Of a DNA stretch of 64,000 bases, positions 21,177 to 58,460 are shown in pieces. This stretch comes from Spirochaetia bacterium (GTDB lineage: Bacteria; Spirochaetota; Spirochaetia; SZUA-6; Bin103), in the NCBI GenBank assembly GCA_965208575.1, contig CBDBOV010000004.1, positions 544,001-608,000 on the forward strand, written 5' to 3'. The notes beneath the pieces were generated by a model that was given only the letters and a program-made list of their open reading frames with translations, was not told the origin of the DNA and did not search any database. Within the stretch, counting starts at the first letter, position 1, and every line of letters starts with the position of its first letter. The translations under genes and the position numbers were made by a program.

Positions 21177-22595
21177 TCAGCTTGTCCCCCACTCCGCCCA
21201 CTTGTCCGGGTTGGCCCACTGCTGGCCCACCTCGACGAAGCCGCGCGGACCGCGGACGCCGTGTTCGAACGGGTCGCCGGTGGCCTCCATCCAGCGGTGC
21301 AAGCGCTGCTCCATCTCCTGCACGACCGGACGCGCGGCCGCCGAATACGCCAGGTTGTTCATTTCCAGCGGGTCTTCCTGCCGGTCGAACAGCCAGGGGC
21401 TGCGCTCGTTGGCGTACCAGCGGGCGTAGGTGTAGCGCGCGGTGCGCACGGCGCGCCAGCGCCCCACCCAGCCGTAGCGGTTGGGCCAGCCGTTGGCCAT
21501 GTTCATCAGGTACACCGACTCGCTTGCCCCCGGGGCGTGCGGCGGGTCGGCGGGCACCGGCTGCCCGCGCCACACCGGCGACAGGTCGCGGCCCTGCAGG
21601 CCGGCCGGCAATGGCACGCCGCAGGCGCCGAGCAGGCTCGGCACGATGTCTATGGCGCCCATGAAGGCGTCGCTGCGCGTGCCCGCCGGGGTGTTGCCCG
21701 GCCAGCGGATCACGAACGGCACGTGCGCGGAGTCCTCGTACGGGGTGGCCTTGGAGGCGCGCCGGGTGTGGTGCAGCCAGGTCTCGTTGGGCTTGCCGTA
21801 GCCGTGGGCGCGGATGTGGTCGCCGTGGTCCGAGCTGTAGCACACGATGGTGTCGTCGGCGACCTGCAAGCGGTCGAGCGCCGCCAGCAGGCGACCCATC
21901 TCCACGTCGAGCCCGGTGCAGCAGGCGTAGTAGTCGGCCAGCTCGCGGCGGGCGTGGTCGGCCAGGGCGTCGGGTACGTTGGCCGGCAGATCGACCGCCG
22001 CCGGATCGTAGCGCTCGATGGAATCGGGAAACTGCTCGTACGGCCAGTGCGGCGGCCGCCACGACAGGAACAGGGCAAACGGATCGTCGGGCCGCTCCGC
22101 GCGGTGGCGCTCCAGGTAGCGGATCGCCAGGTCGGTCTCGACAGTCGGCCCCCAGCCCGGAAAGGCGGTCGGCCCGTGCTCGTTCTCGTAGTAGGGCTGG
22201 TCGAAGTAGCCGCGGCCGGGGCCGACCGCGGCCAGGTAGTCGATCCCGTACCTGCCCTCCTCGGTATACGGTCCCTTGCCGAGGTGGAAGGTACCGACGT
22301 GGGCGGTCCCGTAGCCGTGCTCGCGCAAGGTTCCCGGCAAGGTCGGGATATCGCGCCGCGGCCGATACTCGTTGTCGATCACGCCATTGCGCCAGCCGAA
22401 CCGACCGGTGAGGAGAATCGCCCGGTACGGCGAGCACAGGGGGTGGTTGGAGAACATGTTGTCGCAGACCATGCCCTCGGCCGCCATCCGGTCGAGCACG
22501 GGGGTGCGTACCACGCGGTTGCCATTGGCGCCGAGGGCGCTGTAGCGCTGCTGGTCCGAGAACACGAACACGATGTTGGGTCGCCTGCTGCTCAT
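21177..22595 (-). CDS. Cys-type sulfatase
   Basis: PNIVFVFSDQ, CSPYRAILLTG, SSDHG. Confidence 0.93.
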   Translation of the reverse strand: MSSRRPNIVFVFSDQQRYSALGANGNRVVRTPVLDRMAAEGMVCDNMFSNHPLCSPYRAILLTGRFGWRNGVIDNEYRPRRDIPTLPGTLREHGYGTAHVGTFHLGKGPYTEEGRYGIDYLAAVGPGRGYFDQPYYENEHGPTAFPGWGPTVETDLAIRYLERHRAERPDDPFALFLSWRPPHWPYEQFPDSIERYDPAAVDLPANVPDALADHARRELADYYACCTGLDVEMGRLLAALDRLQVADDTIVCYSSDHGDHIRAHGYGKPNETWLHHTRRASKATPYEDSAHVPFVIRWPGNTPAGTRSDAFMGAIDIVPSLLGACGVPLPAGLQGRDLSPVWRGQPVPADPPHAPGASESVYLMNMANGWPNRYGWVGRWRAVRTARYTYARWYANERSPWLFDRQEDPLEMNNLAYSAAARPVVQEMEQRLHRWMEATGDPFEHGVRGPRGFVEVGQQWANPDKWAEWGTS

Positions 22596-22821: not shown

Positions 22822-24210
22822 TCAGGCGGCCTCCGGGACAAGCTCATAACCGAGTGCGTGTGCCTGCCTTCGGAGCCGGCGTTCAAAGCGGCGCCGGTCC
22901 TGGCGCTCCTCGGCGGCGAGGATGCTGTCATCGTAGGCCACGCGATGCGTGATCAGATGGTAGATGATCCGAGCCAGTTTATGCGCGACTGCAGTGGTCG
23001 CTTCGGGAGTACCCAGACGCGCCCGCATGCGGCGGAAGTGCTGGCCCAGGGCCGATGGGCTGCGGTACAACGACTGGGTCGCCCAGTGCAGCGCCTGGGC
23101 GGCCCGATTGGTGCCCCGACCGGTGTGCGAGCTGATGATCTTGCCGCCGGTGATCTGGTTGTGGGGGCACAGGTGCAGCCAGGAGGCGAATTGCGGTGCG
23201 GTCGGAAAGCGGGACAGTTCCGGGCCGAGTTCGGTGAACAGAACCAGCGCCGTACTTTCGCCGATGCCGGGAATCAGCGTCAGGTCAGTGCCGAACAGGT
23301 GCGTAAGGTGGCCGCGCAGGTCGAACCGCTTGGCCGGTGACTCGGTTGGCGCCTCGGGCTCCGCATCGATTCCCTCATCCGGTGGGTCGTCGCCCACCGC
23401 GCCGGGTGGCTCGCTGCTGGCTTCGAACGCGCGGATGCCGGCTTCGATTTCCTGATCGCACTCCGTGATGAGTTGTTGGTAGTGGGCATAGGTCGCTCGC
23501 GCGTGCCGCAACGCCAACAGGTGCTCGGCGCGCCAGTCGCCCTGCAGCGCCTTGATCAAGGTCTCGCGGCTGGCTTTGATCCGCCGGTCGGCCAGAGCGG
23601 CCAACCGCGCCGGATCCCGCTCACCCGCCAGGATAGCGTCCGTAATGGCCAGACCGGTCGTCCCCGTCAGGTCAGAGATGGCATGGTGCAGATGCACGTT
23701 CATCTGGCTGTACGCCTTCTGCATGTGCAACACGCTGCGCGACGCCATCTTGATCAAGGTGTCGCGATGGCGCAGCACCGAGCGCAGTGCACACACCTCG
23801 TCGGCAGGGCGGAATGAGCCGCGCAGCAATCCCACCGAGTGCAGGTAGCGCAACCACTCGCAGTCGGCCACGTCGGACTTCCGACCGGGTACCGAGTGCA
23901 CGTGACGCGCATTCACCAGCACCACGTCGAAGCCGTGTGCCTCCAGGATCTGATACACCGGAATCCAGTACACACCGGTGGACTCCATCGCCACCGTGGT
24001 GACCTCGCATTCCTTGAGCCAGTCGGCCAAGGCGTGCAGGTCCGCGGTGAACGTAGCAAAGTTCCGGATCGGGTCCGGGTCGCGCTCCGGGCGCACAGCC
24101 GCGTACACCTCGGTAGCGCCTATGTCCAAGCCGGCAGCGTCCGGGTGCATCACCTTTGGTTGCGCTGTGCGACTGCCCTTGCCCTTGCGTCTGTGTCTGC
24201 GTCGTGCCAT
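22822..24210 (-). CDS. IS110 DEDD recombinase/transposase
   Basis: GLDIG, MESTGVYW, KSDVAD, IPGIG, AVAHKLARIIY. Confidence 0.95.
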   Translation of the reverse strand: MARRRHRRKGKGSRTAQPKVMHPDAAGLDIGATEVYAAVRPERDPDPIRNFATFTADLHALADWLKECEVTTVAMESTGVYWIPVYQILEAHGFDVVLVNARHVHSVPGRKSDVADCEWLRYLHSVGLLRGSFRPADEVCALRSVLRHRDTLIKMASRSVLHMQKAYSQMNVHLHHAISDLTGTTGLAITDAILAGERDPARLAALADRRIKASRETLIKALQGDWRAEHLLALRHARATYAHYQQLITECDQEIEAGIRAFEASSEPPGAVGDDPPDEGIDAEPEAPTESPAKRFDLRGHLTHLFGTDLTLIPGIGESTALVLFTELGPELSRFPTAPQFASWLHLCPHNQITGGKIISSHTGRGTNRAAQALHWATQSLYRSPSALGQHFRRMRARLGTPEATTAVAHKLARIIYHLITHRVAYDDSILAAEERQDRRRFERRLRRQAHALGYELVPEAA

Positions 24211-24229
24211 GAAACCTCCGCTACGACTG

Positions 24230-24420
24230 AGTGGTGCGGCCAAGGCGTGTGTAGCAGGTATTCTCCTGAACGGGATGATCGCCACCCGGCCGCGCCGGCT
24301 GACAACCTCACCAATGACTACGCCACCCGCCCCGGGGCCAAGCTCTTGAACGGGTTCGCAGAACGTAACGCCAGTGACGCGCCGGCCTACTTTCGCGCTC
24401 CACCCAGAACTCTGCCCACA
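24230..24420 (-). ncRNA. Putative IS110 bridge RNA
   Basis: Non-coding left end contains cccgtTCAAGAGC (= target flank) and cccgtTCAGGAG (= IS right end); RNA boundaries approximate. Confidence 0.65.
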
Positions 24421-24729
24421 CTATAGCTCACCCTTGTTTCTTTCATGACTGCGCCGGCCCAGGGGCCGGTGGGATAGCTCTTGAGATAGTCGACAAGCGT
24501 TTCGACAGGCACGCGAGTCGCCGCGAACACCAAATCCCCACTGTGAATTTCGGGGTTACGAGAAACCACTCTGCCAAGTTCTACAGAACCATCGCCCGCT
24601 TCACTCATGGAATGCCCTCGACCGGATCGTAGTCCGGATGCACAGCATCGTTCAAGCTGGGCATTGGCGCGCCGCATCGGTGCGGTCATACTTCGCCGAT
24701 CCCGGCGCACCCAACCTTGGAGGAGTTAC

Positions 24730-26676
24730 ATGACCACTACGACCGGTATACGAATGAGGCGCGTTGATGCTGGCTCGTTCCTGATGGGGAACGACCGCCC
24801 ACTGCCCGACGCACTGCTGTCTCCCTCCTGCTTCCGCCACGGCGATTTCGACGAGGTGCCCGTGCACCGCGTTACCATCACCAGGCCGTTCCACTTGGCG
24901 GAGTGCCAAGTAACCAACGCCCAGTACGAGTTGTTCGACCCGGCGCACCGGGAACTGCGCGGCAAGCTGGGGTTCTCCGGGGATGACGACGAAGCCGTGG
25001 TGTTCGTGAGCTGGCATGACGCCGCCGCCTACTGCCGCTGGCTGTCCGAGCGCGAGGGAGCCGAGTTCCGCCTGCCCACCGAGGCGGAGTGGGAATACGC
25101 GTGCCGGGCCGGCTCCTCGACACCGTTCTGGAGCGGAGATGCGCCGCCGCCGGGGGTGGCTAAGAACCAGCGCCGTACCTGGTTTCCCGACCCGTCGCGC
25201 AGCACCGGCGACAACGTCGCCCCGCTGCACGTCGGTCGTACGCCCGCCAACCCGTGGGGCCTGTTCGACATGCACGGCAACGTCGAAGAGTGGTGCCTGG
25301 ACTGGTACGGCCCCTACCTCGAGCGCGACGCGAGCGACCCCGTCGGCGTCCCCGAAGGCGATTTCCGAGTCACCCGCGGCGGCAGCCACTCGACCGAAAC
25401 CTACTACCTCAGGTCGGCCAACCGGGCGGCAGCCCTGCCGCAGGAACGCAACTGGCTGATCGGGTTCCGTGTCGTGTGCGCCGACTGCCCGACGCCGCCG
25501 GGACCGGCCCGCAAGGCGCCGGTGAAACTGCACGGCAGCAATGTGCTGCAGACTACCGCCGCGGAGAAGTCAGCTTCGGACGATGATCCTTTCTTCCGCG
25601 GGCCGGTCCGCTACGTCCACATTCCTCCCCGTTCTTACGGACCCCTGTTCAGCACGCACAATCACGACCCGGCGATCTGCCAGTGCCCCAACGGCGACCT
25701 GCTGGCCATCTGGTACAGTTGCGTCGAGGAACCGGGCCGGGAACTGGGCATACTGGCCAGCCGTCTGCGTGCCGGAGCCGATTCCTGGGAGCCGGCGTCG
25801 GTGTTCTGGGACGCCCCCGACCGCAACGACCACGCGCCCGCCCTGCTGTGCGACGGCGGGCGGGTGTACCACTTCAACGGCATGTCGGCGGCTGCCACCT
25901 GGGGACCGCTGAGGACGGTCCTGCGCACTTCCAACGACAGCGGCGCCACCTGGAGCCGGGCCAGGTTCATCAGCGGCGAGCACGGCCCGCGCCAGATGCC
26001 GATCGCATCGGCGTTCACGCTGCGCGACGGAACCCTGGTGCTGCCGTGCGACGCGGTCAGCATCGGCCACGGCGGCACCGCCCTGTGGATGAGCGCCGAC
26101 GGCGGCGAGACGTGGCGCGACGCCGGCGGCACCATCGCCGGAATCCACGCATCGGCGGTGGAACTCGGCGACGGACGGCTGCTGGCCTTCGGGCGCGGCG
26201 ACGAGGTGGACGGCACCCTGACAATGAGCGTATCCGCCGACCGCGGCACGACCTGGCAGTACTCGGCCAGTCCGTTTCCCCCCATCGGCGGCTCGCAGCG
26301 CCTGGTACTGCAACGGGTTCGCGGTACCTGCAGCGCGGGCGCCGATCCGATTCTGCTCATCTCCTTCGCCAACGCGCCCGCCGAAGCCGACGACGCCTTC
26401 ACCATCGAGGACGCCGGCGGCCGCCGGGGAGTCTCCGGCATGTTCTGCGCCCTGTCCTTCGACGACAGCGAGACCTGGCCGTTCCGCCGCCTGGTCAGCG
26501 ACGGCGGACCGGCCCGCGTCATCGAAGCGATGGATGGATTCCCGTGCCTCATGGGAACCCGGCACGCCGAGGCGAACGGCTACCTCACCGCCTGCCAGTC
26601 CGCGGACGGCCGCGTCCACCTGATCAGCAGCAGCAACCACTACTCGTTCAACCTGGCCTGGCTCGTGGATCGCTGA
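24730..26676 (+). CDS. FGE/SUMF1-like domain fused to a BNR/Asp-box sialidase-like propeller
   Basis: RLPTEAEWEYACR, GLFDMHGNVEEW, RGGS; Asp-boxes SNDSGATW, SADGGETW, SADRGTTW, SFDDSETW. Confidence 0.88.
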   Translation: MTTTTGIRMRRVDAGSFLMGNDRPLPDALLSPSCFRHGDFDEVPVHRVTITRPFHLAECQVTNAQYELFDPAHRELRGKLGFSGDDDEAVVFVSWHDAAAYCRWLSEREGAEFRLPTEAEWEYACRAGSSTPFWSGDAPPPGVAKNQRRTWFPDPSRSTGDNVAPLHVGRTPANPWGLFDMHGNVEEWCLDWYGPYLERDASDPVGVPEGDFRVTRGGSHSTETYYLRSANRAAALPQERNWLIGFRVVCADCPTPPGPARKAPVKLHGSNVLQTTAAEKSASDDDPFFRGPVRYVHIPPRSYGPLFSTHNHDPAICQCPNGDLLAIWYSCVEEPGRELGILASRLRAGADSWEPASVFWDAPDRNDHAPALLCDGGRVYHFNGMSAAATWGPLRTVLRTSNDSGATWSRARFISGEHGPRQMPIASAFTLRDGTLVLPCDAVSIGHGGTALWMSADGGETWRDAGGTIAGIHASAVELGDGRLLAFGRGDEVDGTLTMSVSADRGTTWQYSASPFPPIGGSQRLVLQRVRGTCSAGADPILLISFANAPAEADDAFTIEDAGGRRGVSGMFCALSFDDSETWPFRRLVSDGGPARVIEAMDGFPCLMGTRHAEANGYLTACQSADGRVHLISSSNHYSFNLAWLVDR

Positions 26677-26898: not shown

Positions 26899-27213
26899 TC
26901 AGCCGAGATCAAGCGCGAAGCGCACGGCGGTCGCGACCTGCTCCATCAGACGCGGGGAGAGCGTCGTGATCAGGGCACCGAGTTTGCCCCGTTGCACCGT
27001 CTGGACGTGGTCGCAGTTCACGGCGCACTCTCGCGGCATGCCGTCCTCCAGGGAGAGGAGCACCTCGCTCGGGATGTCGCGAATTCGCGTCGTGACGGGT
27101 GCTACCGTCACCTCCCCCAAGTACGGAATGATCGAGTCACGCGTCAGGACCAGAACGGGTCTCCGCTTGTCCGGTGACGCGAATCGATACCAGCGGATCT
27201 CGGCGCGTTTCAC
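26899..27213 (-). CDS. PemK/MazF toxin
   Basis: KRRPVLVLT, VAPVTT, NCDHVQTV; GTG start. Confidence 0.88.
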   Translation of the reverse strand: MKRAEIRWYRFASPDKRRPVLVLTRDSIIPYLGEVTVAPVTTRIRDIPSEVLLSLEDGMPRECAVNCDHVQTVQRGKLGALITTLSPRLMEQVATAVRFALDLG

Positions 27214-27235
27214 CGGCGATGTCCCACGCCCCCGG

Positions 27236-27487
27236 TCAAGCGCCGTCGTCCCAGGCCTCGCCACCCCACGCCCGGTCTCCCTCGGGAACGTCGAACTCCG
27301 CGCGTGACGGCGGGTGCTTCCGGTAGCCGGCGACGTGGCGCGCCTCAAGTTCGGCTTCCTCGTGCCGCTGCAGTGCGGCACGGAGCGCGTCGCGAGTGAA
27401 GGAGGACCTGGTGATACTGAGCTTCCTGGCGACCTGGTCGACCTTGGCAAGCAACTCGGGATCCATCGTCATCTGTACGGTCGGCAT
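27236..27487 (-). CDS. Ribbon-helix-helix (CopG-type) antitoxin
   Basis: VQMTMDPELL..VD..A......RS.F.R.AL; palindrome tagctacaattttagcta (27487-27504) at the start. Confidence 0.85.
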   Translation of the reverse strand: MPTVQMTMDPELLAKVDQVARKLSITRSSFTRDALRAALQRHEEAELEARHVAGYRKHPPSRAEFDVPEGDRAWGGEAWDDGA

Positions 27488-27665: not shown

Positions 27666-28631
27666 TCAGGCGCATCCGGGCGCGTCGGAGGTCCAGCGTT
27701 CGTAGATGGGATCGGGCTGCCCGGCCAAGGTGGCGCGGGTTTGGTGCCAGAGAGCGGCCCACTCTTCGGGGTCGCGGATCTCGGTTTCCGGGCGCGCCCG
27801 GCTGCGTGCGATGAAGCCCGGCTGCACCTCGCGGCCGCTCGGCTGGTCGGCCGGGTTGTAGCGCAGATCGAAACTCCAGCGAACGGTGCCGCTGTGGTTG
27901 GGAAGCGGGCCGTGATGCATCAGGCGGTGCATCAGCAGCACCCCTCCCCGCGGCATCGGCACCGGCACGGCCTCCGCGCCGCGGGTGAGTTGCGACGGGA
28001 TCGTCACGCCGGGACTGCAGTGCAGCATGAGCCCGTCTCGATGGCTGAACGGAACCACCGCGAGGCAGCCGTTTTCCACGCCCGCGTCGGCGAGGGGAAG
28101 CCACACGGTGACCATCTCGGTAGCGTCGGCCTCGGGCATCATGAACGCGTTGTCCTGGTGAAACCAGTCCGGGGCGACCGCGGCGCTGTCCGCCGCCGGC
28201 GCGCCGGACGCGCCGCCGACCGGCTGCTTGAGCCGGACGTGTTGAATCGGGTTGGCGAAGATCTCGGGGCCGATGAGCGACTCGACGATGTCGAGCAGCG
28301 TTTCGTTGCGAAGCAGGCCGAAGACCGCCGGACCGACGGAAATCGGGGTCTGTTCCGCGACACTCCGCTTGGGCAGTGCGATATCGAAATGCTGGTGGTA
28401 GCTTTCGCCGGTTTCGAACTGGATCCTGGTGAGCCGTTCGGCAAACGGCAGTTCCGACCAGGTGGACGAGATCTTGCCGGCGGCGAACAGGTCTGTTGCC
28501 ACCTGCTCCAGGATGACCGTGTACTCTTCGACCACTGGATCTAGGTCCGCTCTGGGGTCAAGCACTTCTTCGAGCACCAAGTACCCTTCGTCGGTGAACT
28601 GAGCGATCTGACTCTCCGTGAGACCTGGCAT
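27666..28631 (-). CDS. Phytanoyl-CoA dioxygenase family Fe(II)/2OG oxygenase
   Basis: QFTDEGYLV, WFHQD, VWLPL..ENGCL, H..PN.S...R.S.D.RY. Confidence 0.9.
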   Translation of the reverse strand: MPGLTESQIAQFTDEGYLVLEEVLDPRADLDPVVEEYTVILEQVATDLFAAGKISSTWSELPFAERLTRIQFETGESYHQHFDIALPKRSVAEQTPISVGPAVFGLLRNETLLDIVESLIGPEIFANPIQHVRLKQPVGGASGAPAADSAAVAPDWFHQDNAFMMPEADATEMVTVWLPLADAGVENGCLAVVPFSHRDGLMLHCSPGVTIPSQLTRGAEAVPVPMPRGGVLLMHRLMHHGPLPNHSGTVRWSFDLRYNPADQPSGREVQPGFIARSRARPETEIRDPEEWAALWHQTRATLAGQPDPIYERWTSDAPGCA

Positions 28632-28768
28632 GGGGCTGCTCCTTACCGTAGCGGCAGCACAGCACTTCCACCTGCCAGAGTCAACCCCTTGCCGTCGAGA
28701 CGTCGAGACCGTCGAGGACTCTCGACCTGCTCGAACGCTGCAGGTAGTGTACCGGCGGACACTACCTG

Positions 28769-29821
28769 ATGAAGAAGAACGTAGCGCTGCTCGGCGCGAG
28801 CCACATTCACACCCGCGGGTTCGCCGACGTGCTGGCCGGCCACACCGACGTGTCGGTGGCGGCAGTCTGGGATCCCGATCCGGCCATCGCCGGCAAGTAC
28901 GCGGCGAAGTTTCAATGCCGTACGGCGCCCGATGCGGCATCGGTGCTCGGCATGCCGGATCTGGACGCCGTGATCGTGCTGTCGCAGACCAATCGCCACG
29001 AGGAACTGGTGGGGCAGGTTGCCCGTGCCGGCAAGCACTGCTTCGTCGAGAAGCCGCTGGGCATGGGACTGGCCGACGCCAGGAACATGATGCGGGCGCT
29101 GGAAGGCGCCGGGATGATTTTCCACATGGGGTACTTCAACCGCACCATCCCGGCGCACCGGTTGCTGCGGCGCCTGATCGCCGAGCAGGCGTTCGGCGAG
29201 GTCAGCCGCATGCGGCTGGTGTTCGGCACGCCGGCGGCGATCAACGGCGCATTCCGCTCCGACTGGGAGTGGATGGCCGACCCGAAGCAGGCAGGCGTCG
29301 GCGCATTCGGCGACCTCGGTACTCACAAGCTGGACCTGCTGCTGTACCTGATCGGCGACACCGCCCGCCTGGAGGCGGTCACCGCCAGCTTCTCGCGGCC
29401 CCTCGGGCGCTACGCGGAGGGCGAAGAGTGCGGCGAGGCGATCCTGCGCTTCGACAACGGCACCATCGCCACCCTGGCGGCGAGCTGGGTGGACCTGGTG
29501 GAGCCGTCATCGCTGCTGATCACCGGGACCAAGGGCCACGCGGTGATCCGCAACGCGCCCGGCATGCCGCACAACGACTGGAACAACGAGCTGTTCCTGC
29601 TCACCGACGCCGTCGACGGCGCCACCGGCAAGGACCCGTGGACCGAGCTGCCGGAGGCACTGCCGCGGCCGCTCGAGCAGTTCATCGCCGCCGTCGTACA
29701 CGGCGAACGCGACCACCTGGTGAGCGTGCGCGAGGCGGCGTACAGCAGCTACGTCATGGAGATGATATCGAGAGCGGCCGCCGAACGGCGCTGGCTGCCG
29801 ATCGACCCCGCAGCCCTGTAA
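28769..29821 (+). CDS. Gfo/Idh/MocA oxidoreductase
   Basis: AGKHCFVEKP, GAFGDLGTH. Confidence 0.92.
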   Translation: MKKNVALLGASHIHTRGFADVLAGHTDVSVAAVWDPDPAIAGKYAAKFQCRTAPDAASVLGMPDLDAVIVLSQTNRHEELVGQVARAGKHCFVEKPLGMGLADARNMMRALEGAGMIFHMGYFNRTIPAHRLLRRLIAEQAFGEVSRMRLVFGTPAAINGAFRSDWEWMADPKQAGVGAFGDLGTHKLDLLLYLIGDTARLEAVTASFSRPLGRYAEGEECGEAILRFDNGTIATLAASWVDLVEPSSLLITGTKGHAVIRNAPGMPHNDWNNELFLLTDAVDGATGKDPWTELPEALPRPLEQFIAAVVHGERDHLVSVREAAYSSYVMEMISRAAAERRWLPIDPAAL

Positions 29822-29936
29822 CGCCGGTTTCGGACGGTTTACGCCCGGACCAGGCGAGGGGCGATCGGCAACGGGAGTCTTGACAGCACGCGCGGCAATC
29901 GGCACGGTCGCGAAGTGGATTTCTGTCTGAGCGGGT

Positions 29937-31199
29937 GTGTACTTGGCCGCTGAACGGGTAGAACTCAACGGGGTCAGGTACCGGGTTCCGGACGCTCCGG
30001 TTGTGGTGGTGTGCGTCGACGGCGGCGACCCGGAATACTTCGCGGCGGCACGGGCGGCCGGGTGCATTCCCACCGTCTCCCGCTTCATGGACACCGGATT
30101 CAGCGCGGTAGCGCACTGCGGCATCCCCAGTTTCACCTGCCCCAACAACATGTCGATCGCCACCGGGGCGCCGCCGAACGTGCACGGCATCTCCGGGAAC
30201 TTCTATCTCGACCGCGCCACCGGCCAGGCGGTGGTCATGACCGGCCCCGAGTTGATGCGCTCGCGCACGGTGTTCGACGTGCTGTCGAAGGCCGGCGCCC
30301 GGACCGTGGTGATCACCGCCAAGGACAAGCTCCGCACCCAGCTCGGCAAGGGCCTGGACGTCGCCGCCGGCAACGTGTGCTTCTCCTCCCAGCACGCCGA
30401 CCGCTGCACCGCCGCCGAGAACGGCATTACCGACGCACTCGGCTTCGTGGGACAGCCGCTCCCCGACATGTACTCCGAGGAACTGTCGCTGTTCGTGCTC
30501 GATGCCGGTATCCGGTTCCTGGAGCAGGACGATCCACCGGCGCTGCTGTACCTGTCGCTGACCGACTACGTGCAGCACAAGTACGCTCCCGACCATGCCG
30601 CCGCCCTCGCCTTCCACGCGGCGCTGGATGAGCGCTTCGCGCGCCTGCAGGAGCTGGGCGCGACCGTGGCCCTGACCGCCGATCACGGCATGAAGGACAA
30701 GTGCGGCGCGGACGGCAGCTACCACATCGTCTACCTGCAGGATCTGCTGGACGAGCGCTTCGGCGTGGGCCGCACCCGGGTGATCTGCCCGATCACCGAC
30801 GCGTTCGTCGGCCACCACGGATCGCTCGGCGGATTCGTGCGGGTCTATTGCTTCGGCGGCGTGGAGCCGCGCGACGCAGCCGATTTCATCCGCCCGCTCC
30901 AGGGCATCGAAGAGGTGCTGGAGCGCGAGGATGCGGCCCAGCGGTTCGATCTTCCCGCCGACCTGGAGGGAGACGTGGCGGTGATCTCCACCGCGGACTA
31001 CTGTGTCGGCATGGGGCGCGCCGACCACGACCTGGCCGACCTGCACGGCGAACGCCTGCGTACCCACGGTGGAATCTCCGAGCAGGACGTGCCGTTCATC
31101 GTCAGCCGGCCGCTGAACGCCGCCTACCGCGCACGGGCGCGGTCGGAGCAACTGCTGAACCACCAGATCTTCGACTACGCCATCAACGGCACCGCCTGA
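29937..31199 (+). CDS. phnA: Phosphonoacetate hydrolase
   Basis: VVVCVDG, PSFTCPNNMSIATG..HGISGN, YLSLTDYVQHK, TADHGM, CPITDAFVGHHGSLG, RTHGG. Confidence 0.9.
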   Translation: MYLAAERVELNGVRYRVPDAPVVVVCVDGGDPEYFAAARAAGCIPTVSRFMDTGFSAVAHCGIPSFTCPNNMSIATGAPPNVHGISGNFYLDRATGQAVVMTGPELMRSRTVFDVLSKAGARTVVITAKDKLRTQLGKGLDVAAGNVCFSSQHADRCTAAENGITDALGFVGQPLPDMYSEELSLFVLDAGIRFLEQDDPPALLYLSLTDYVQHKYAPDHAAALAFHAALDERFARLQELGATVALTADHGMKDKCGADGSYHIVYLQDLLDERFGVGRTRVICPITDAFVGHHGSLGGFVRVYCFGGVEPRDAADFIRPLQGIEEVLEREDAAQRFDLPADLEGDVAVISTADYCVGMGRADHDLADLHGERLRTHGGISEQDVPFIVSRPLNAAYRARARSEQLLNHQIFDYAINGTA

Positions 31200-31220
31200 G
31201 GGCGCACTGAGCAGCAGCCC

Positions 31221-32318
31221 GTGGCACCGCGTACGGCCCGCGCCGCCGTCTACGACGCACCCAATACGCCGTTCGTCATCCGCCGCTATCCGTTGCGCGA
31301 CGCGCGCCGCGACGAGGTCCTGGTACGGGTCACGATGTCGACCATCTGCCGCTCCGACATCCACTCCTACCACGGCCATCGCCCCAACCCGTGCCCGGGG
31401 ATCCTCGGCCACGAGATCATCGGCGTCATCGATCAGCTCGGGGCGGACATCGAGACCGATATGCGCGGCGATCCGGTGGCGGTCGGCGACCGCATCACCT
31501 GGACCGAGTACTTCCACCACGGCCCGTCCTACTACCGGGAGGTTCACGACCTGCCGCAGAAGTCGGTGGGCGTAAGAAAATACGGGCACGACCTGGTGGC
31601 CGACGACCCGCACTTCCTGGGCGGCTTCGCCGAGTACTGCTACGTCCTGCCCGGCACCGGCATCCTGAGGCTCCCCGACGAGCTGAGCGACGAGGAGGCC
31701 ACCCCGATCAACTGCGGCGTCGCCACCGTCGTCGCGATCACGGAGGCGACGCGGATCGGGCTGGGCGACGTCGTGGCCGTCCAGGGACTGGGCCTGCTGG
31801 GCCTGTACGCGTGCGCCATCGCCAAGGCGCGCGGCGCCCGGCGCGTGGTCGGCATCGACAGCGTGGGCGACCGCCTCGCGGCGGCCCGCAAGTTCGGCGC
31901 GGATGCCGTGATCGACGTGTCCGGCCGCGGCTCGCACGACGTGGTGGCCGCGGTGCGCGAGCTGGCGCCGCCCGACGGCGTCGACGCGGTAATCGAGGTG
32001 TGCGGCAATGCCGCCGTGATTCCGGACGGGCTGGAGATGCTGCGCATCGGCGGCCGCTATACCCTGGGCGGCATCGTCACCCCGGACGCCGACGTCACCA
32101 TCGACGCCAACGTGCTCGTGAAGAAGTGGATCACGCTGCGCGGCGTCCACAACTACCACCCGCGGCACCTGGTCCAGGCGCTGGATTTCGTGGTGGCCAA
32201 CCGCGACCGGTTTCCGTTCCGGGAGATCGTCGACGCCCGGTTCACGCTTGACCAGATCGACGAAGCGTTTCAGCGGGCGGCCGAGCGCACAGTCCTGCGT
32301 GCCGCTATCGTTCCCTGA
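31221..32318 (+). CDS. Zinc-dependent (MDR) alcohol dehydrogenase
   Basis: CRSDIH, GHE, NCG, GLGLLG. Confidence 0.9.
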   Translation: MAPRTARAAVYDAPNTPFVIRRYPLRDARRDEVLVRVTMSTICRSDIHSYHGHRPNPCPGILGHEIIGVIDQLGADIETDMRGDPVAVGDRITWTEYFHHGPSYYREVHDLPQKSVGVRKYGHDLVADDPHFLGGFAEYCYVLPGTGILRLPDELSDEEATPINCGVATVVAITEATRIGLGDVVAVQGLGLLGLYACAIAKARGARRVVGIDSVGDRLAAARKFGADAVIDVSGRGSHDVVAAVRELAPPDGVDAVIEVCGNAAVIPDGLEMLRIGGRYTLGGIVTPDADVTIDANVLVKKWITLRGVHNYHPRHLVQALDFVVANRDRFPFREIVDARFTLDQIDEAFQRAAERTVLRAAIVP

Positions 32319-32333
32319 GGAGCACCGACCGAG

Positions 32334-33791
32334 ATGACCCCGGCGACACCTGACCTGGCATTCGAACCGCGCGGACTGTTCATCGGCGGCGAATGGGTAG
32401 CCGCCCAGGCCGGAGGTACCATCACCAGCATCAATCCGGCAAACGGCGAGCTGCTGGGAGCGGTGCCGCTGGCCGACGAGCACGACGTGGAGCGGGCGGT
32501 CGCCGCCGCCAAGGCCGCGTTCCCGGCGTGGGCGGCGCTGCCGGTGACGCGGCGCGCCGACTACCTGCGCCGGCTCGCCGATGCCGTCGAGCGCAACGCC
32601 GACTGCCTGGCGCTGATGGACGCGGTGGACAGCGGCAATGCGATCTCCGGCATGCGCGGGGACATGACCTGGACCGCCGACGCGCTACGCTACTTTGCCG
32701 CGCTGGTCACCGAGATGAAGGGCGAGACCATGTCGCGCGAGCAGGGGCATCTCAACCTGACCCTGCGCCAGCCCTACGGCGTGGTCGCCAGGATCAACCC
32801 GTTCAACCACCCGTTCCGCTTCTGCGCCGAGAAGGCGGCGTCCGCGCTTGCCGCCGGCAACACCGTGGTGATCAAGGGACCGGAGCAGGCGCCGCTGTCG
32901 AGCCTCAGGCTGGGCGAGCTGTGCGCGGAGATCTTTCCACCGGGAGTGGTGAACATCGTGACCGGCGACGGCGCCACCGGATCGGCCATGGTGCGCCATC
33001 CGGACGTGGCGCGGGTCGGCTTCGTCGGCTCGGTGGAGACCGGCCGCCGCGTCGCCCGCGAAGCTGCCGAGAGCCTCAAGGAGGTGACCCTGGAGCTGGG
33101 CGGCAAGAACCCGATCGTCATCTTCCCCGACGCCGACCCGGCCAAGGCCGCGGCCCAGGCGGTAGCGGCGATGAACATGAACCGCCAGGGGCAGTCCTGC
33201 TCGTCCACCTCGCGGGTACTGGTGCACCGGTCGCTGCACGAGCGCGTGCGCGCCGAGCTGGTCAAGGCCGCGGCCGCCATCCCGATCGGCCTGCCCTGGC
33301 TGGAGGATGCCGAGATGGGGCCGATCGTGTCGCGGCCGCAGTACGAGCGGGTGCTCGGCTACGTCGCCTCCGGCCGCGACGAGGGCGCCGAGCTGCTCAC
33401 CGGCGGCGGCCCGCCGCCCGCTCCGGAACTCGCCGCGGGCTTCTTCATCGAGCCCACCGTGTTTGACCGCGTGCGGCCCGAGATGCGTATCGGCAGCGAG
33501 GAGATCTTCGGACCGGTGATGGCGATCATGAGCTGGTCCGACTTCGACGAGATGATCGAAGTCGCCAACGGCGTGATGTACGGGCTGACGGCGTCGCTGG
33601 TGACCAACGACTTCGGCGCCGCGATGCGCGCCGCCGAGCGGTTGCAGGCGGGCTACGTGTGGATCAACTCCTCGGGCCGCTACCTCGGCGCGCCCTATGG
33701 CGGCTGGAAGCAGAGCGGGATCGGCAAGGAGGAGTCGTTCGAGGAGCTGCTGAGCTTCACCCGGGTCAAGAACATCAACATGCGTTGGTAG
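32334..33791 (+). CDS. Aldehyde dehydrogenase
   Basis: PFNHP, LELGGKNP, GQSCSSTSR, EEIFGP. Confidence 0.93.
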   Translation: MTPATPDLAFEPRGLFIGGEWVAAQAGGTITSINPANGELLGAVPLADEHDVERAVAAAKAAFPAWAALPVTRRADYLRRLADAVERNADCLALMDAVDSGNAISGMRGDMTWTADALRYFAALVTEMKGETMSREQGHLNLTLRQPYGVVARINPFNHPFRFCAEKAASALAAGNTVVIKGPEQAPLSSLRLGELCAEIFPPGVVNIVTGDGATGSAMVRHPDVARVGFVGSVETGRRVAREAAESLKEVTLELGGKNPIVIFPDADPAKAAAQAVAAMNMNRQGQSCSSTSRVLVHRSLHERVRAELVKAAAAIPIGLPWLEDAEMGPIVSRPQYERVLGYVASGRDEGAELLTGGGPPPAPELAAGFFIEPTVFDRVRPEMRIGSEEIFGPVMAIMSWSDFDEMIEVANGVMYGLTASLVTNDFGAAMRAAERLQAGYVWINSSGRYLGAPYGGWKQSGIGKEESFEELLSFTRVKNINMRW

Positions 33792-33863
33792 CTGCTTGAA
33801 GGGCCAACGCCGGTGGGACGGGATGGGCCAAAAGCGTCGCCGGCAAGCGGCGGTTTTGGGGCG

Positions 33864-35039
33864 CTATCGCCCGAGTACGGCCGGGGCCAAGTCGCCGATC
33901 GAGCCGCCGAGCGCGTCGTCGCTGCGCGCATCGGACGCGGCCAGTGCCTGCGCCGCGGTCGGCACCGGCGTGTCGTACTGGTAGCCGGGCTGCACGCGCT
34001 GTCGCTTCCAGGCGGTGCGCATTTCGCGCCAGGCGCCGACCAGGGTGCGCGGCGGCGGGCAGTCGGCGGCGATGGCGCGGCTGAGCTTGCGCAGGTTGTA
34101 GCATGGCACGCCGGCGTACATGTGGTGCTCCATGTGCCAGTTCATGCGCCAGTACAGGAACGACGACAGCGGGTCGATTCGGATGCTGCGCACGCACTTG
34201 CGGAAGTCGGCGATGTTGTCGCGCAGGCCGCAGTGCATCGGCATGAACACCAGGTAGCGCCACCAGTTGGCTGCCGCCACCGGCAGGCTGATCAGCACCG
34301 GCAGCAGCCACAGCCCGGAGGCCACCGCCACCACCAGCACCGAGCCGTGGAACAGCAGCAGGATCCGCGCCCAGCGAATCGACTTGCGCCGTTCTTCCGG
34401 GTGCGCCTCGTACAGCGCGACGATCCACTCCTGGGCGCGCACCCCGACCGGCTCGGTGTCGCCGACCGTGTCCGCCCGCATCGGCAGTCCGAGCGCCGCG
34501 GTCACGGTGTAGCGCAGGAGCGGCCACAACCCGCGGCACATCGGCCCGCCGGTGATGTTGACGGTCAGCAGTTGCAGCACGTACAGCCAGCGCAGCGTCG
34601 GCGACTGCGGCAGCACCACCTCGCGGTCGCCGTCCGGGTGCAGCGTGTAGCGGTGGTGGTAGGTGTGGCTCAGCGCGTAGTCGTGGTGGTTGAACCACGC
34701 CAGCGGCGCGAAGATGCGCAGGAAGACCCGGTTGAGCCGCTTGGTCTTGAACACCGTGCCGTGGTCCAGCTCGTGGCACGCCGCGGACAGGAAGCTGCCG
34801 AATGTGCAGTGCAGGTAAAGCGCCAGTGCGAAGCCGACCCATGCCTGCTGCAGGAACAGGTAGTACGTAATCGTCGCGGTGGCGGCAAACAGGGCCAAGT
34901 TGCCCCCGGCCTGCAGCCACCCCTGCAGGTCGCTGCGCTGCATCAGCCGGCGCAACGCCTGCGGCTCGATCGGGCTGCGATACCAGCGCACGCGCTTGGT
35001 GCGGGTAACCTCGTTCAGCGGCGGGCGATCAACTGGCAT
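33864..35039 (-). CDS. Membrane di-iron fatty-acid-desaturase-like oxygenase
   Basis: His boxes HELDH, HTYHH, HMEHH. Confidence 0.88.
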   Translation of the reverse strand: MPVDRPPLNEVTRTKRVRWYRSPIEPQALRRLMQRSDLQGWLQAGGNLALFAATATITYYLFLQQAWVGFALALYLHCTFGSFLSAACHELDHGTVFKTKRLNRVFLRIFAPLAWFNHHDYALSHTYHHRYTLHPDGDREVVLPQSPTLRWLYVLQLLTVNITGGPMCRGLWPLLRYTVTAALGLPMRADTVGDTEPVGVRAQEWIVALYEAHPEERRKSIRWARILLLFHGSVLVVAVASGLWLLPVLISLPVAAANWWRYLVFMPMHCGLRDNIADFRKCVRSIRIDPLSSFLYWRMNWHMEHHMYAGVPCYNLRKLSRAIAADCPPPRTLVGAWREMRTAWKRQRVQPGYQYDTPVPTAAQALAASDARSDDALGGSIGDLAPAVLGR

Positions 35040-35076
35040 GGTTCTCAGGGATGAACCATACAGGAACACCGTGTAA

Positions 35077-35150
35077 CGGGCAATGCGGGATTCGAACCCA
35101 CGACCTCTGGCTCCGGAGGCCAGCGCTCTATCCAGCTGAGCTAATTGCCC
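35077..35150 (-). tRNA. tRNA-Arg (CCG)
   Basis: GGGCAAT/ATTGCCC acceptor stem, D arm, ctggc-CT CCG GA-gccag anticodon arm, GGTTCGAATCC; CCA not encoded. Confidence 0.95.
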
Positions 35151-35955: not shown

Positions 35956-37393
35956 GGGTGCGAACGCCGAAAGCGGTAGCAAATCATTGACTCTGAGGCG
36001 GAAAAAAGGTCTACCTACCCCACGACACCACACCATGGGGAGGTAGACCATGAATACGGAAGGACTTATAACGGCCGCCGAGGGCCTTGTCAAGGAGTTG
36101 CAAGGGCGCATCAACGGCGGCCGGATGGATCTCCAGGAGGCGGAAGCCAAGATCCTTGAGATGGTGAACTGGATCGGCGACGAGATGGTGCAGGAAGTGG
36201 TAGCCGGACTCGCGGAGCCGACATCCGCCAACCAGATCACGGTTGGCGGTGAGGTGGCAGTGTTCGAGCGGGTGCGTAACCTGCGGTTCATCAACCGCTT
36301 CGGCGAAGAAGTGGTGCACCCGCGGCGCTGCTACCGGTACCGGCACCGGAGCGGAGGCGTGGCGCCGCTGGATGTGAAGCTGGGGATCGACGGGTGCTTC
36401 GGATTCTCACCGCTGATGACGTACCTGATCTGCATGCTGGGCGCGGATGAGTCGTATGCCGGTGCAGCGGCAAAACTGGAGGCGATGCTCGGGTTCAAGG
36501 TGAGCTCGACGGCGGTGCAGCGCACTACCGAGAAGACGGGAGAGCGGATACCCGATACCCCCGACGATCTAATTGATGAGCAGCGTCAGCGGCAGCCATG
36601 TTCCCTGATGGTGGTCGAGGTAGACGGAACGACGAGCCCGCAGATCACGGAGCAGGAAGGGATTACTGGTCTTGCCAGCCTCCGGGCGCCGACCTGTTAC
36701 AAGGAGTGCAACCTGATAGTCATCGAGAAGCACGATGATGGCAAGGTGATCGACCGCTGGACCGGAGGACGCTATGGACCACGCGGTGAGTTTGCCGGCT
36801 ACGCCGAGCAGGCTGGACTGCGAATGGGCTTCCTGGACGCTCCACGAACGCTGTTCCTCGGTGATGGTGCACACCACAACTGGGAACTGCAGCAGACCCA
36901 CTTCCCCGGCGCGATACCGATCCTGGACTACTACCACGCGGCTGAGCACCTCGCCGATTACTGCAAGCTGCTGTCTGCTACGCTACGCGATGCCGTCGAG
37001 CGCAGCTTGTCCACGATGATGTGGGAAGGCGAGGTGCTGCAGATGATCCACGAGATGAAGCGTTCACTGTCGAAGGTCACCGATACTGACGAAGCGTGGA
37101 AGCAGATCAACTACTTCACGAACAACCAGGACCGTATGGACTATGCCCGTTACCGCGATCTCGGGTGGCCGATCGGCAGTGGCTTGGTCGAAGGGCAGTG
37201 CAAATTGGTTGTCGGTCGACGCTTCAAGGGCAACGGGATGAGATGGCGACCGCACGACAACCGCTGCGTGCTACGCACCCGTCTGGCTCTGCTCAACGGC
37301 GACCTCAAGCGCTATTTCAGTCCTCCTGACGACTGCGAGATCAAAGCGGCCTGATCGTGTCAACCCCTGTTACCGCTTTTGGCATTGGCACCC
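35956..37393 (+). mobile_element. Mutator-like IS (ISKra4/ISLre2-type), copy 1, 1438 bp
   Basis: TIRs GGGTGCGAACGCCGAAAGCGGTAGCA / TGTTACCGCTTTTGGCATTGGCACCC; 9-bp TSD gatcactac. Confidence 0.9.
36050..37354 (+). CDS. DDE transposase (Mutator-like)
   Basis: EVDG, LGDGA, LDYYHA, PIGSGLVEG, RFK..GMRW. Confidence 0.92.
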   Translation: MNTEGLITAAEGLVKELQGRINGGRMDLQEAEAKILEMVNWIGDEMVQEVVAGLAEPTSANQITVGGEVAVFERVRNLRFINRFGEEVVHPRRCYRYRHRSGGVAPLDVKLGIDGCFGFSPLMTYLICMLGADESYAGAAAKLEAMLGFKVSSTAVQRTTEKTGERIPDTPDDLIDEQRQRQPCSLMVVEVDGTTSPQITEQEGITGLASLRAPTCYKECNLIVIEKHDDGKVIDRWTGGRYGPRGEFAGYAEQAGLRMGFLDAPRTLFLGDGAHHNWELQQTHFPGAIPILDYYHAAEHLADYCKLLSATLRDAVERSLSTMMWEGEVLQMIHEMKRSLSKVTDTDEAWKQINYFTNNQDRMDYARYRDLGWPIGSGLVEGQCKLVVGRRFKGNGMRWRPHDNRCVLRTRLALLNGDLKRYFSPPDDCEIKAA

Positions 37394-43232: not shown

Positions 43233-43622
43233 TCAGGAACTTGTGCGTTCCTGGCGCGCTGCGATGTCGACCGTTCGCCGAGGGTCGATGACCAGGCGGA
43301 TGCCGCGGAGGACGTCGGTCACGTGCTCTCCGCCGAGCCGTCCGATGCGCTCGGTCAGTTCGCCCTTGTCGATGGTGAACAGTTGCGTCACGTTGACGAC
43401 ACTGTCGCGCGGCAGGTTGCCTTCACCCTTCGGTAGCAGCACGTTGCCCGGAGCTTCGGCACGGCTCAGGTTGGACGTCAGCGCGCACACTACAACGGTG
43501 GCCAGCCGGCTGTGGTTGAACAAGTCGTTCTGAATCACCACGAACGGTCGCCGCAACGCCGGCCGCGAACCGGACGACTGGCCCAGGTCCACCCAATACA
43601 GATCCCCCTGCCTGATCACCAC
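43233..43622 (-). CDS. PemK/MazF toxin
   Basis: RQGDLYWVDL, RRPFVVIQND, CALTSN; overlaps the antitoxin stop. Confidence 0.9.
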   Translation of the reverse strand: MVIRQGDLYWVDLGQSSGSRPALRRPFVVIQNDLFNHSRLATVVVCALTSNLSRAEAPGNVLLPKGEGNLPRDSVVNVTQLFTIDKGELTERIGRLGGEHVTDVLRGIRLVIDPRRTVDIAARQERTSS

Positions 43623-43867
43623 CTGTCGGCGGACCGCCGTTGCAGAGGGCGGATTCCCAGCAGGGTGGCCGACTCTTCGTCGTCGGGAAAGTCGGCGTAA
43701 GCAGCGTTCAGACCCTCGAGGAGAACCCGATTCTCCGCCCTCGCCAGAAACTCCTCCAGCGCCAGCGCGTACAGGCGGCTGCGTGGCGTACCCCACCTGC
43801 GCGCCACCTCGTCCACGCGCTGCGCCAACGCCCGCTCAACCGAAACCGCAACCCGGATCTTCGCCAT
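43616..43867 (-). CDS. RHH-type antitoxin
   Basis: VAVSV...L...VD..A..W...RSRLYALALEEFL..LNAAY. Confidence 0.82.
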   Translation of the reverse strand: MAKIRVAVSVERALAQRVDEVARRWGTPRSRLYALALEEFLARAENRVLLEGLNAAYADFPDDEESATLLGIRPLQRRSADRW

Positions 43868-57022: not shown

Positions 57023-58460
57023 GGGTGCGAACGCCGAAAGCGGTAGCAAATCATTGACTCTGAGGCGGAAAAAAGGTCTACCTACCCCACGACACCACAC
57101 CATGGGGAGGTAGACCATGAATACGGAAGGACTTATAACGGCCGCCGAGGGCCTTGTCAAGGAGTTGCAAGGGCGCATCAACGGCGGCCGGATGGATCTC
57201 CAGGAGGCGGAAGCCAAGATCCTTGAGATGGTGAACTGGATCGGCGACGAGATGGTGCAGGAAGTGGTAGCCGGACTCGCGGAGCCGACATCCGCCAACC
57301 AGATCACGGTTGGCGGTGAGGTGGCAGTGTTCGAGCGGGTGCGTAACCTGCGGTTCATCAACCGCTTCGGCGAAGAAGTGGTGCACCCGCGGCGCTGCTA
57401 CCGGTACCGGCACCGGAGCGGAGGCGTGGCGCCGCTGGATGTGAAGCTGGGGATCGACGGGTGCTTCGGATTCTCACCGCTGATGACGTACCTGATCTGC
57501 ATGCTGGGCGCGGATGAGTCGTATGCCGGTGCAGCGGCAAAACTGGAGGCGATGCTCGGGTTCAAGGTGAGCTCGACGGCGGTGCAGCGCACTACCGAGA
57601 AGACGGGAGAGCGGATACCCGATACCCCCGACGATCTAATTGATGAGCAGCGTCAGCGGCAGCCATGTTCCCTGATGGTGGTCGAGGTAGACGGAACGAC
57701 GAGCCCGCAGATCACGGAGCAGGAAGGGATTACTGGTCTTGCCAGCCTCCGGGCGCCGACCTGTTACAAGGAGTGCAACCTGATAGTCATCGAGAAGCAC
57801 GATGATGGCAAGGTGATCGACCGCTGGACCGGAGGACGCTATGGACCACGCGGTGAGTTTGCCGGCTACGCCGAGCAGGCTGGACTGCGAATGGGCTTCC
57901 TGGACGCTCCACGAACGCTGTTCCTCGGTGATGGTGCACACCACAACTGGGAACTGCAGCAGACCCACTTCCCCGGCGCGATACCGATCCTGGACTACTA
58001 CCACGCGGCTGAGCACCTCGCCGATTACTGCAAGCTGCTGTCTGCTACGCTACGCGATGCCGTCGAGCGCAGCTTGTCCACGATGATGTGGGAAGGCGAG
58101 GTGCTGCAGATGATCCACGAGATGAAGCGTTCACTGTCGAAGGTCACCGATACTGACGAAGCGTGGAAGCAGATCAACTACTTCACGAACAACCAGGACC
58201 GTATGGACTATGCCCGTTACCGCGATCTCGGGTGGCCGATCGGCAGTGGCTTGGTCGAAGGGCAGTGCAAATTGGTTGTCGGTCGACGCTTCAAGGGCAA
58301 CGGGATGAGATGGCGACCGCACGACAACCGCTGCGTGCTACGCACCCGTCTGGCTCTGCTCAACGGCGACCTCAAGCGCTATTTCAGTCCTCCTGACGAC
58401 TGCGAGATCAAAGCGGCCTGATCGTGTCAACCCCTGTTACCGCTTTTGGCATTGGCACCC
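57023..58460 (+). mobile_element. Mutator-like IS, copy 2, 1438 bp
   Basis: Same TIRs and protein as copy 1; 8-bp TSD cggggacg. Confidence 0.9.
57117..58421 (+). CDS. DDE transposase (Mutator-like)
   Basis: Translation identical to 36050-37354. Confidence 0.92.
   Translation: MNTEGLITAAEGLVKELQGRINGGRMDLQEAEAKILEMVNWIGDEMVQEVVAGLAEPTSANQITVGGEVAVFERVRNLRFINRFGEEVVHPRRCYRYRHRSGGVAPLDVKLGIDGCFGFSPLMTYLICMLGADESYAGAAAKLEAMLGFKVSSTAVQRTTEKTGERIPDTPDDLIDEQRQRQPCSLMVVEVDGTTSPQITEQEGITGLASLRAPTCYKECNLIVIEKHDDGKVIDRWTGGRYGPRGEFAGYAEQAGLRMGFLDAPRTLFLGDGAHHNWELQQTHFPGAIPILDYYHAAEHLADYCKLLSATLRDAVERSLSTMMWEGEVLQMIHEMKRSLSKVTDTDEAWKQINYFTNNQDRMDYARYRDLGWPIGSGLVEGQCKLVVGRRFKGNGMRWRPHDNRCVLRTRLALLNGDLKRYFSPPDDCEIKAA

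Follow-up and report, generated by a model that had tools for sequence, protein, structure and literature searches.

The 64,000-nt window analysed here (positions 544,001-608,000 of contig CBDBOV010000004.1, GCA_965208575.1) belongs to a Spirochaetia bacterium (SZUA-6; Bin103) with a 6.5 Mb assembly in 6 contigs that is 95% complete. It contains a trio of genes encoding a phosphonoacetate hydrolase (phnA), a zinc-dependent alcohol dehydrogenase (ADH), and an aldehyde dehydrogenase (ALDH) (Table 1). All three reading frames are open and lack internal stops, and the shared orientation and short gaps reported in a first-pass annotation of this DNA agree exactly with the coordinates in the list of open reading frames (ORFs). 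An antisense ORF of 909 aa (29754-32483, -) overlapping phnA and the ADH gene lacks a Pfam family and was rejected as an artefact of the high G+C content (67%-70%). The three genes probably form one operon for a hydrolytic catabolism of 2-hydroxyethylphosphonate (HEP) that is independent of the carbon-phosphorus (C-P) lyase and proceeds from HEP via phosphonoacetaldehyde and phosphonoacetate to acetate and phosphate.

Table 1. Positions of the proposed HEP operon and its upstream neighbours in the window
Feature	Position	Strand	Basis or remark
phnA, phosphonoacetate hydrolase, 420 aa, GTG start	29937..31199	+	TIGR02335 and likeness to 3szy
phnA-ADH gap	31200-31220		21 bp
PbfG-like zinc ADH, 365 aa, GTG start, proposed HEP dehydrogenase	31221..32318	+	PF08240 and PF00107, TIGR03366 best
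ADH-ALDH gap	32319-32333		15 bp
ALDH of distinct clade, 485 aa, ATG start, proposed phosphonoacetaldehyde dehydrogenase	32334..33791	+	PF00171, gene slot
Presumed promoter region of the trio, 115-bp spacer	29822..29936	+	between the stop of the upstream GFO/IDH/MocA gene and phnA; putative promoter role
GFO/IDH/MocA oxidoreductase	28769-29821		upstream of the trio
PhyH-family dioxygenase	27666-28940		upstream of the trio

Both the pathway class and the ADH family are already known. The first-pass annotation knew of no characterisation of the route, but the HEP dehydrogenase PbfG and pbfG-phnY-phnA clusters were published in September 2026 (Piazza et al., Protein Sci 2026; PMC13576164). According to that article, PbfG of Cellulosimicrobium protaetiae (WP_154797266) is a pf00107 zinc ADH that converts HEP to phosphonoacetaldehyde (kcat/KM 88,500 M-1 s-1) and releases phosphate when combined with PhnX, with an equilibrium favouring HEP and a faster reaction in the reductive direction. 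Degradative clusters combine pbfG with either phnX or phnY-phnA, and many of them lack phnW and pbfD; those of the pbfG-phnY-phnA type are listed for Gemmatimonadota, Verrucomicrobiota, Caulifigura, and Spiractinospora. The published assays paired PbfG with PhnX and not with an ALDH and PhnA, and the PbfG-ALDH-PhnA branch was inferred from these gene clusters (PMC13576164). The trio in the window has the same set of roles, a pf00107 zinc ADH, an ALDH, and PhnA, and likewise comes without phnW or pbfD. What the window and its relatives add are an ALDH lineage apparently replacing PhnY, the spread of the operon beyond the phyla of the published clusters, and a genome in which the trio seems to provide the sole phosphonate route.

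The assignment of the first gene is firm at the level of protein family. PhnA reaches 532.9 bits on TIGR02335, well above the equivalog cut-off of 407.55, covers model positions 1-407 of 408, and matches the core of the alkaline phosphatase superfamily (PF01663). Against the solved enzymes 3szy and 1ei6 it scores 358-390 bits (3szy itself 389.7), and the stretches SFT.PNN, TDYVQHKY, TADHGM, and HGG are identical in the alignment with 3szy, which we take to be the phosphonoacetate hydrolase of Sinorhizobium meliloti. These conserved stretches presumably are the metal-ligand and nucleophile motifs of the catalytic site. On this basis the gene product is classified as a phosphonoacetate hydrolase, encoded by a single gene copy in the assembly.

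The second gene product is a medium-chain zinc dehydrogenase with a GroES-like and a Rossmann domain (PF08240, 59.9 bits; PF00107, 93.7 bits). Its best curated family is TIGR03366 (287.6 bits; runner-up threonine dehydrogenase, 124), which carries the NCBIfam title 'putative phosphonate catabolism associated alcohol dehydrogenase'. A plasmid search retrieved WP_284687237 of Chondrinema litorale, one of the PbfG entries in Table S2 of PMC13576164. This protein scores 359.6 on the model and passes the cut-off; thus, TIGR03366 and PbfG stand for one and the same family. Between the window ADH and this Chondrinema PbfG, identity amounts to 37%, a value inside the published range within PbfG (minimum 27.9%, mean 40.7%; PMC13576164).

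Active-site residues support this kinship. In the C. protaetiae PbfG, the zinc ligands are Cys45, His66, and Cys166, and HEP is bound by Ser47, Arg56, His124, and Asn298 (PMC13576164). The equivalents in the window ADH (C43, H64, and C165 as well as S45, R54, H123, and N311) do not vary among the seven sequences of an alignment comprising this protein, five members of its clade, and the Chondrinema PbfG; six of the positions were matched by offsets of one to two residues, and the Asn was placed by the HNY motif. Asp213, which closes the second Rossmann strand, is also invariant and presumably marks NAD+ use. A four-cysteine structural zinc site, as modelled in C. protaetiae PbfG (PMC13576164), is absent from the window ADH, which has no Cys between residues 66 and 139. 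It is equally absent from the Chondrinema PbfG, and hence not family-defining.

In a maximum-likelihood tree of 28 ADH rows, the Chondrinema PbfG and all 18 window-type rows form a 19-row clade (support 100/99), although this PbfG is the single one from the published list in the tree and sits on a long branch (3.5), so that its exact placement is uncertain. Outside this clade fall seven paralogues of the same genome and two zinc ADHs from Cnuibacter and Caballeronia plasmids, about 35% identical to the window ADH. The latter two were excluded as PbfG kin; they belong to ADH-ALDH pairs in non-phosphonate contexts (L111:4962-7538 and L112:3476-6101), and these pairs look like a recurring ADH-ALDH module for other anionic alcohols. 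The topology of the ADH tree is at odds with the taxonomy of the carriers, which suggests horizontal spread. Based on the profile, the active site, and the tree, we read the window ADH as a divergent member of the PbfG family or as a sister clade of PbfG. It would catalyse the same reaction as the PhpC-type (pf00465) HEP dehydrogenases and phosphonoacetaldehyde reductases, which are found in the same kind of degradative clusters but have an unrelated fold.

The gene order is widely conserved. A scan of species-representative genomes yielded 315 stretches with relatives of this ADH, and the best 80 loci (62%-91% identity) were classified by tblastn, with gene calls from our own ORF and tblastn scripts. 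The first-pass annotation had proposed neighbourhood conservation as a check on the trio, and this proved favourable: phnA lies just upstream and a window-type ALDH just downstream of the ADH gene in 61 of the 80 loci, and the order is also kept in the 11 loci examined from relatives of this genome, all of which have the ADH gene and the 3' end of phnA directly upstream of the ALDH gene. Stricter criteria lower the count to 56, the difference being partial genes at contig ends. The window-type ALDH is also found in three further loci, where phnA was either cut off or undetected (64 loci with this ALDH in total), and in another three the ALDH side is cut by a contig end. In these 61-64 loci, from many phyla, the window-type ALDH follows the ADH gene after 10-30 bp. 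Four loci (L064, L085, L091, and L094) have a canonical PhnY in the ALDH slot, one of them with phnA lost at the contig end; the PhnY-type ALDHs of L064, L085, and L091 are at least 54% identical to that of L094, and the three of the four that were scored (L064, L091, and L094) reach 741-845 bits on TIGR03250. None of the 80 loci contains both types, which are thus mutually exclusive behind the same ADH.

According to their record titles, the carriers are mostly Pseudomonadota (Alpha-, Beta-, and Gammaproteobacteria), along with Gemmatimonadetes, Latescibacterota, Nitrospiraceae, Methylomirabilota, Verrucomicrobiales, and 'Spirochaetia'. The window-type ALDH itself is present in, for example, L021 (Gemmatimonadetes) and L055 (Verrucomicrobiales). 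Carriers from the Pseudomonadota, Spirochaetia, Latescibacterota, Nitrospiraceae, and Methylomirabilota are absent from the PbfG list of PMC13576164. A PhnD-type phosphonate-binding protein is encoded in 45 of the 80 loci, and the other recurrent flanking families are PhnC, two PhnE permeases, and a divergent LysR regulator.

Some loci deviate from this arrangement. In L073, L076, and L077 (L078 is alike), the ADH gene is the last gene of a LysR and PhnD-PhnC-PhnE-PhnE operon; in L035, which stems from the same metagenome-assembled genome (MAG) as L073, the transporter cassette lies downstream of the ADH gene, and in L092 it is divergent; none of these six loci has phnA or an ALDH gene within 8 kb. 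Two MAG loci (L056:6585-7970 and L070:6585-7970) encode a 461-aa sulfatase-family protein (PF00884 and weak PF01663) in the phnA slot upstream of the ADH gene, preceded by a DUF3604 protein and, in L056, also by TctA/TctC transporter genes; this protein could be an alternative hydrolase partner. A close relative carries an additional phnA fragment upstream of the full trio (L016:3758-4255), and the ALDH frame of L087:9122-10564 contains a stop codon, which may reflect a pseudogene or a coordinate slip.

The third gene product is a full-length ALDH (PF00171, 513.9 bits) with the motifs PFNHP (156-160) and GQSCSSTSR (286-294). Both motifs had been noted in the first-pass annotation, and its view that the protein is not a canonical PhnY is borne out by a score of 235.9 on the PhnY model TIGR03250 (cut-off 635.65) and by 29%-30% identity to canonical PhnY. 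The best curated profiles are those of betaine-aldehyde dehydrogenases, which also remain below their cut-offs (TIGR01804, 455.2 vs. 668.6; NF009725, 442.5 vs. 593), and betaine-aldehyde dehydrogenases are also the closest solved structures, led by 2wme, whereas the PhnY structure 4i3t is not among the 60 best. Together with 55 ALDHs from the related loci, the window protein forms a clade of 56 sequences with at least 58% internal identity and 62%-95% identity to the window protein. Towards the outgroup, made up of the 65 closest full-length representatives in the database, identity is 38%-50%, and the best full-length representative from an exhaustive profile search stays at or below 52%. In a FastTree phylogeny including 20 of the 56 clade members, 40 of the 65 outgroup sequences, and 3 PhnY, a branch with support 99 separates the clade from all other sequences, and another with support 100 does so for PhnY. 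By these measures the clade is tight and monophyletic.

Members of this clade are called 'betaine-aldehyde dehydrogenase' (JGI), 'aldehyde dehydrogenase family protein', or '2-formylbenzoate dehydrogenase', the last given by one source to a protein 79% identical to the window ALDH; none of the 120 members listed is named 'phosphonoacetaldehyde dehydrogenase'. The formylbenzoate name would suit the PhdK-like look that the first-pass annotation saw in the ALDH, but the best curated profile is the betaine-aldehyde dehydrogenase one, with a score below its cut-off. A full-text literature search found no paper that separates two ALDH lineages in the PhnY role, and PMC13576164 never uses the term 'aldehyde dehydrogenase'. 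Lockwood et al. (2022) used TIGR03250 as the PhnY marker and added phnY sequences by synteny. The window ALDH clade may already be included among their phnY sequences and among those given as 'phnY' in Table S2 of PMC13576164.

Sequence conservation in the ALDH combines an intact catalytic core with a pocket of its own. All 124 aligned ALDHs share the catalytic residues N158, E254, and C289. PhnY is said, in work by Agarwal et al. from 2014, to bind the phosphonate with Arg108, His159, Arg290, and Arg447, and these residue types are found at the corresponding numbers of the 4i3t chain when a three-residue tag is allowed for. Within the window clade, His159 is kept and Arg449 is offset from Arg447 by no more than one column of the alignment. 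Basic residues are nearly invariant at four positions of the clade (H159, R162, and R449 in 56/56 sequences, R284 in 55/56), which are at or next to what we assume to be substrate-channel positions of ALDHs. A blind search for positions conserved in at least 95% of the clade and shared with at most 10% of the outgroup returned 20 positions, including W113, T114, H139, R162, C164, E166, M282, and R284. Several of these adjoin the oxyanion Asn or the catalytic Cys and presumably line the substrate channel seen in ALDH structures. At R162, E166, R284, and R449, the relatives mostly have hydrophobic or aromatic residues.

Because it and PhnY exclude each other from a fixed operon slot, and because it combines an intact catalytic set with many invariant basic residues in its pocket, the ALDH is most economically interpreted as a phosphonoacetaldehyde dehydrogenase, and the clade as a whole points to a non-orthologous replacement of PhnY. 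We lean, with moderate confidence, towards a second, independently recruited phosphonoacetaldehyde dehydrogenase lineage that would bind the phosphonate via H159, R162, R284, R449, and perhaps H139, unlike PhnY with its R108, H159, R290, and R447.

No PhnW-like match was found in the whole assembly, in line with the earlier statement that PhnW is absent and that a medium-chain ADH takes its place. Because phnW, phnX, phnJ, canonical phnY, and the phosphoenolpyruvate mutase gene all score below cut-off in the assembly, the trio is by all appearances the only recognisable phosphonate-catabolic system of this genome. Of 40 related genomes, 23 belong to the same family, and the ALDH was found in 12 of them; the 17 that represent other families in the order gave no match. 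In runs labelled as sponge metagenomes, 26%-40% of sampled words were present. Furthermore, four RNA-library runs from three studies yielded contigs of at least 90% likeness over 25-28 of the 30 bins of positions 28700-35100. Three of the listed contigs bridge the phnA-ADH junction (X20 record 10 (30459-31816), X22 record 26, and X19 record 4), and none of the RNA pieces listed bridges the ADH-ALDH junction. This is a weak hint that the trio copies of relatives are transcribed.

Several observations weigh against the proposed operon and its function. The RNA contigs cover the trio at 90%-99% likeness and originate from relatives rather than from this genome, and they may stem from contaminating DNA, while contig depth cannot rank the genes. 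A consensus scan of positions 29600-34200 found neither a sigma-70-like promoter nor a terminator-like site for the presumed co-transcript. Neither a phosphonate transporter nor a LysR regulator is encoded near the trio in this genome, and no PhnD scores above the cut-off anywhere in the assembly. Nine of the 80 loci contain the ADH gene without phnA or an ALDH gene within 8 kb; a PhnD-type binding protein was detected in seven of these nine, and in those scanned with Pfam the ADH gene follows or adjoins a PhnD/PhnC/PhnE transporter cassette. On TIGR03366, the window ADH and four more members of its clade (282-296) remain under the cut-off of 328.1, in contrast to the Chondrinema PbfG. In the ALDH, the arginine of the PhnY motif GQRC is missing, as Ser288 stands in place of PhnY Arg290 and Trp113 aligns with Arg108, and part of the pocket signature is unspecific, as H159, S288, and R108-like residues also occur in 36, 39, and 37 of the 65 non-clade relatives, respectively.

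The trio might degrade a hydroxyalkylphosphonate other than HEP, methyl-branched or otherwise substituted, with PhnA cleaving the resulting substituted phosphonocarboxylate; this would fit the low TIGR03366 scores of the ADH clade and its modest identity to the listed PbfG, the two altered phosphonate-binding positions of the ALDH, and the invariant residues that the ALDH has of its own (W113, R162, E166, and R284). We nevertheless consider this unlikely, since PhnA passes the equivalog model for phosphonoacetate hydrolase, every HEP-binding residue named for C. protaetiae PbfG is kept in the ADH, and the same ADH clade is paired in four of the 80 loci with canonical PhnY, the curated substrate of which is phosphonoacetaldehyde.

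It is more doubtful still that the ALDH is a general or betaine-type neighbour, with phosphonoacetaldehyde handled in another way and PhnA serving imported phosphonoacetate only. The best curated profiles (betaine-aldehyde dehydrogenase and other non-phosphonate ALDHs), the best solved relatives, and the name used by JGI would all agree with such a role, and the betaine enzymes are indeed the closest curated and structural relatives. However, all these profile scores are below cut-off, the clade is clearly set apart by identity and tree with distinct invariant residues, its genes keep their place behind the ADH gene to the exclusion of PhnY in a phosphonate and not a choline context, and this genome lacks a PhnX or PhnY that could take the product of the ADH. 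In addition, Glu166 falls in an alignment column where 13 of the 65 relatives have a Trp, presumably that of betaine-aldehyde dehydrogenases. Very improbable, finally, is a module handling phosphonoacetaldehyde made from 2-aminoethylphosphonate by an unlinked and unrecognised enzyme, with the ADH acting mainly as phosphonoacetaldehyde reductase, buffer, or detoxifier: the kinetics and equilibrium of published PbfG and the presence of phnW or pbfD in some published pbfG clusters would be compatible with it (PMC13576164), but the assembly has no PhnW-like match, the families found in at least 23 of the 80 loci (PhnD, PhnC, PhnE, and LysR) include no aminotransferase or amine oxidase, and a reductase encoded between phnA and the ALDH gene would compete with the pathway, as argued in the same article.

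Catabolism of HEP itself, as the first-pass annotation had outlined it (two NAD-dependent oxidations followed by hydrolysis by PhnA, without PhnW, C-P lyase, or O2), is consistent with every computational test made here. HEP would enter the cell by a carrier; in most related loci PhnDCE is encoded beside the trio. In the ADH, the catalytic zinc (C43, H64, and C165) would coordinate the hydroxyl group of HEP while R54, H123, N311, and S45 hold the phosphonate, and hydride transfer to NAD+ would give phosphonoacetaldehyde. The ALDH would then oxidise phosphonoacetaldehyde irreversibly to phosphonoacetate with NAD(P)+, and because the equilibrium of the first step favours HEP, this reaction would pull the unfavourable oxidation forward. 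PhnA would finally hydrolyse phosphonoacetate to acetate and phosphate. Overall, acetate and phosphate would be formed along with two reduced nicotinamide cofactors, with neither O2 nor C-P lyase required. The steps of the ALDH and PhnA are the same as the last two in the PhnW-PhnY-PhnA pathway of the S. meliloti type (PhnY, 4i3t); here, however, the ADH and not PhnW would supply the aldehyde, and a distantly related ALDH would take the place of PhnY.

The surroundings of the trio are variable. The upstream GFO/IDH/MocA and PhyH genes were rejected as parts of the module, as none of the 80 loci has a match under strict criteria, and a downstream fatty-acid desaturase gene was rejected because it recurs only in L023 and one genome of the same genus. 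The closest relatives, too, have BNR, PhyH, and GFO-family genes around the trio, the upstream GFO-family gene being a different one. Other neighbours are Uma2, a MazF-like toxin, and IS110- and ISKra4-family elements, and no neighbour is conserved with the trio. Composition gives no signal of a foreign origin (G+C content 69.4% in the trio vs. 67.3% in the genome). The trio lies within a stretch rich in insertion sequences (IS): an IS110-family element (22822-24285) has 15 copies in the genome, and an ISKra4-family element is present in the window as two identical 1438-bp copies (approximately 35956-37393 and 57023-58460), with 10 copies above 1 kb genome-wide.

Further features of the window include a 689-aa fusion of an FGE-sulfatase and a BNR (sialidase-like) domain (24607-26676, +) with a sulfatase gene nearby (21177-22595, -), two MazF/PemK-like toxin ORFs (26899-27450, -, and 43233-43796, -), and an AbiEi antitoxin-like ORF (2376-3395, +). 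Between positions 8000 and 20000, the G+C content drops to 53%-59%, compared with 67% for the genome, and this region contains two opposed Opp/Dpp-type ATP-binding cassette (ABC) transporter cassettes (SBP_bac_5 at 8810-10597 and 17766-19613) and an M20 peptidase.

In the sea, HEP serves as a building block of dissolved organic phosphorus, and until 2026 no fate other than C-P lyase had been documented for it. The 315 related stretches suggest that a hydrolytic, phosphate-insensitive HEP route is common and occurs in phyla and classes beyond those of the first paper, with most such loci using an ALDH that databases label 'betaine-aldehyde dehydrogenase'. If this interpretation is correct, surveys that count phnY by TIGR03250 or by likeness to the S. 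meliloti enzyme overlook the greater part of this route, and HEP mineralisation via phosphonoacetate is far wider than published, including Alphaproteobacteria and symbiont-like genomes without C-P lyase. Recognising the ALDH clade would thus change gene-based estimates of phosphonate turnover, and the clade would offer a natural second solution for phosphonate binding in an ALDH pocket.

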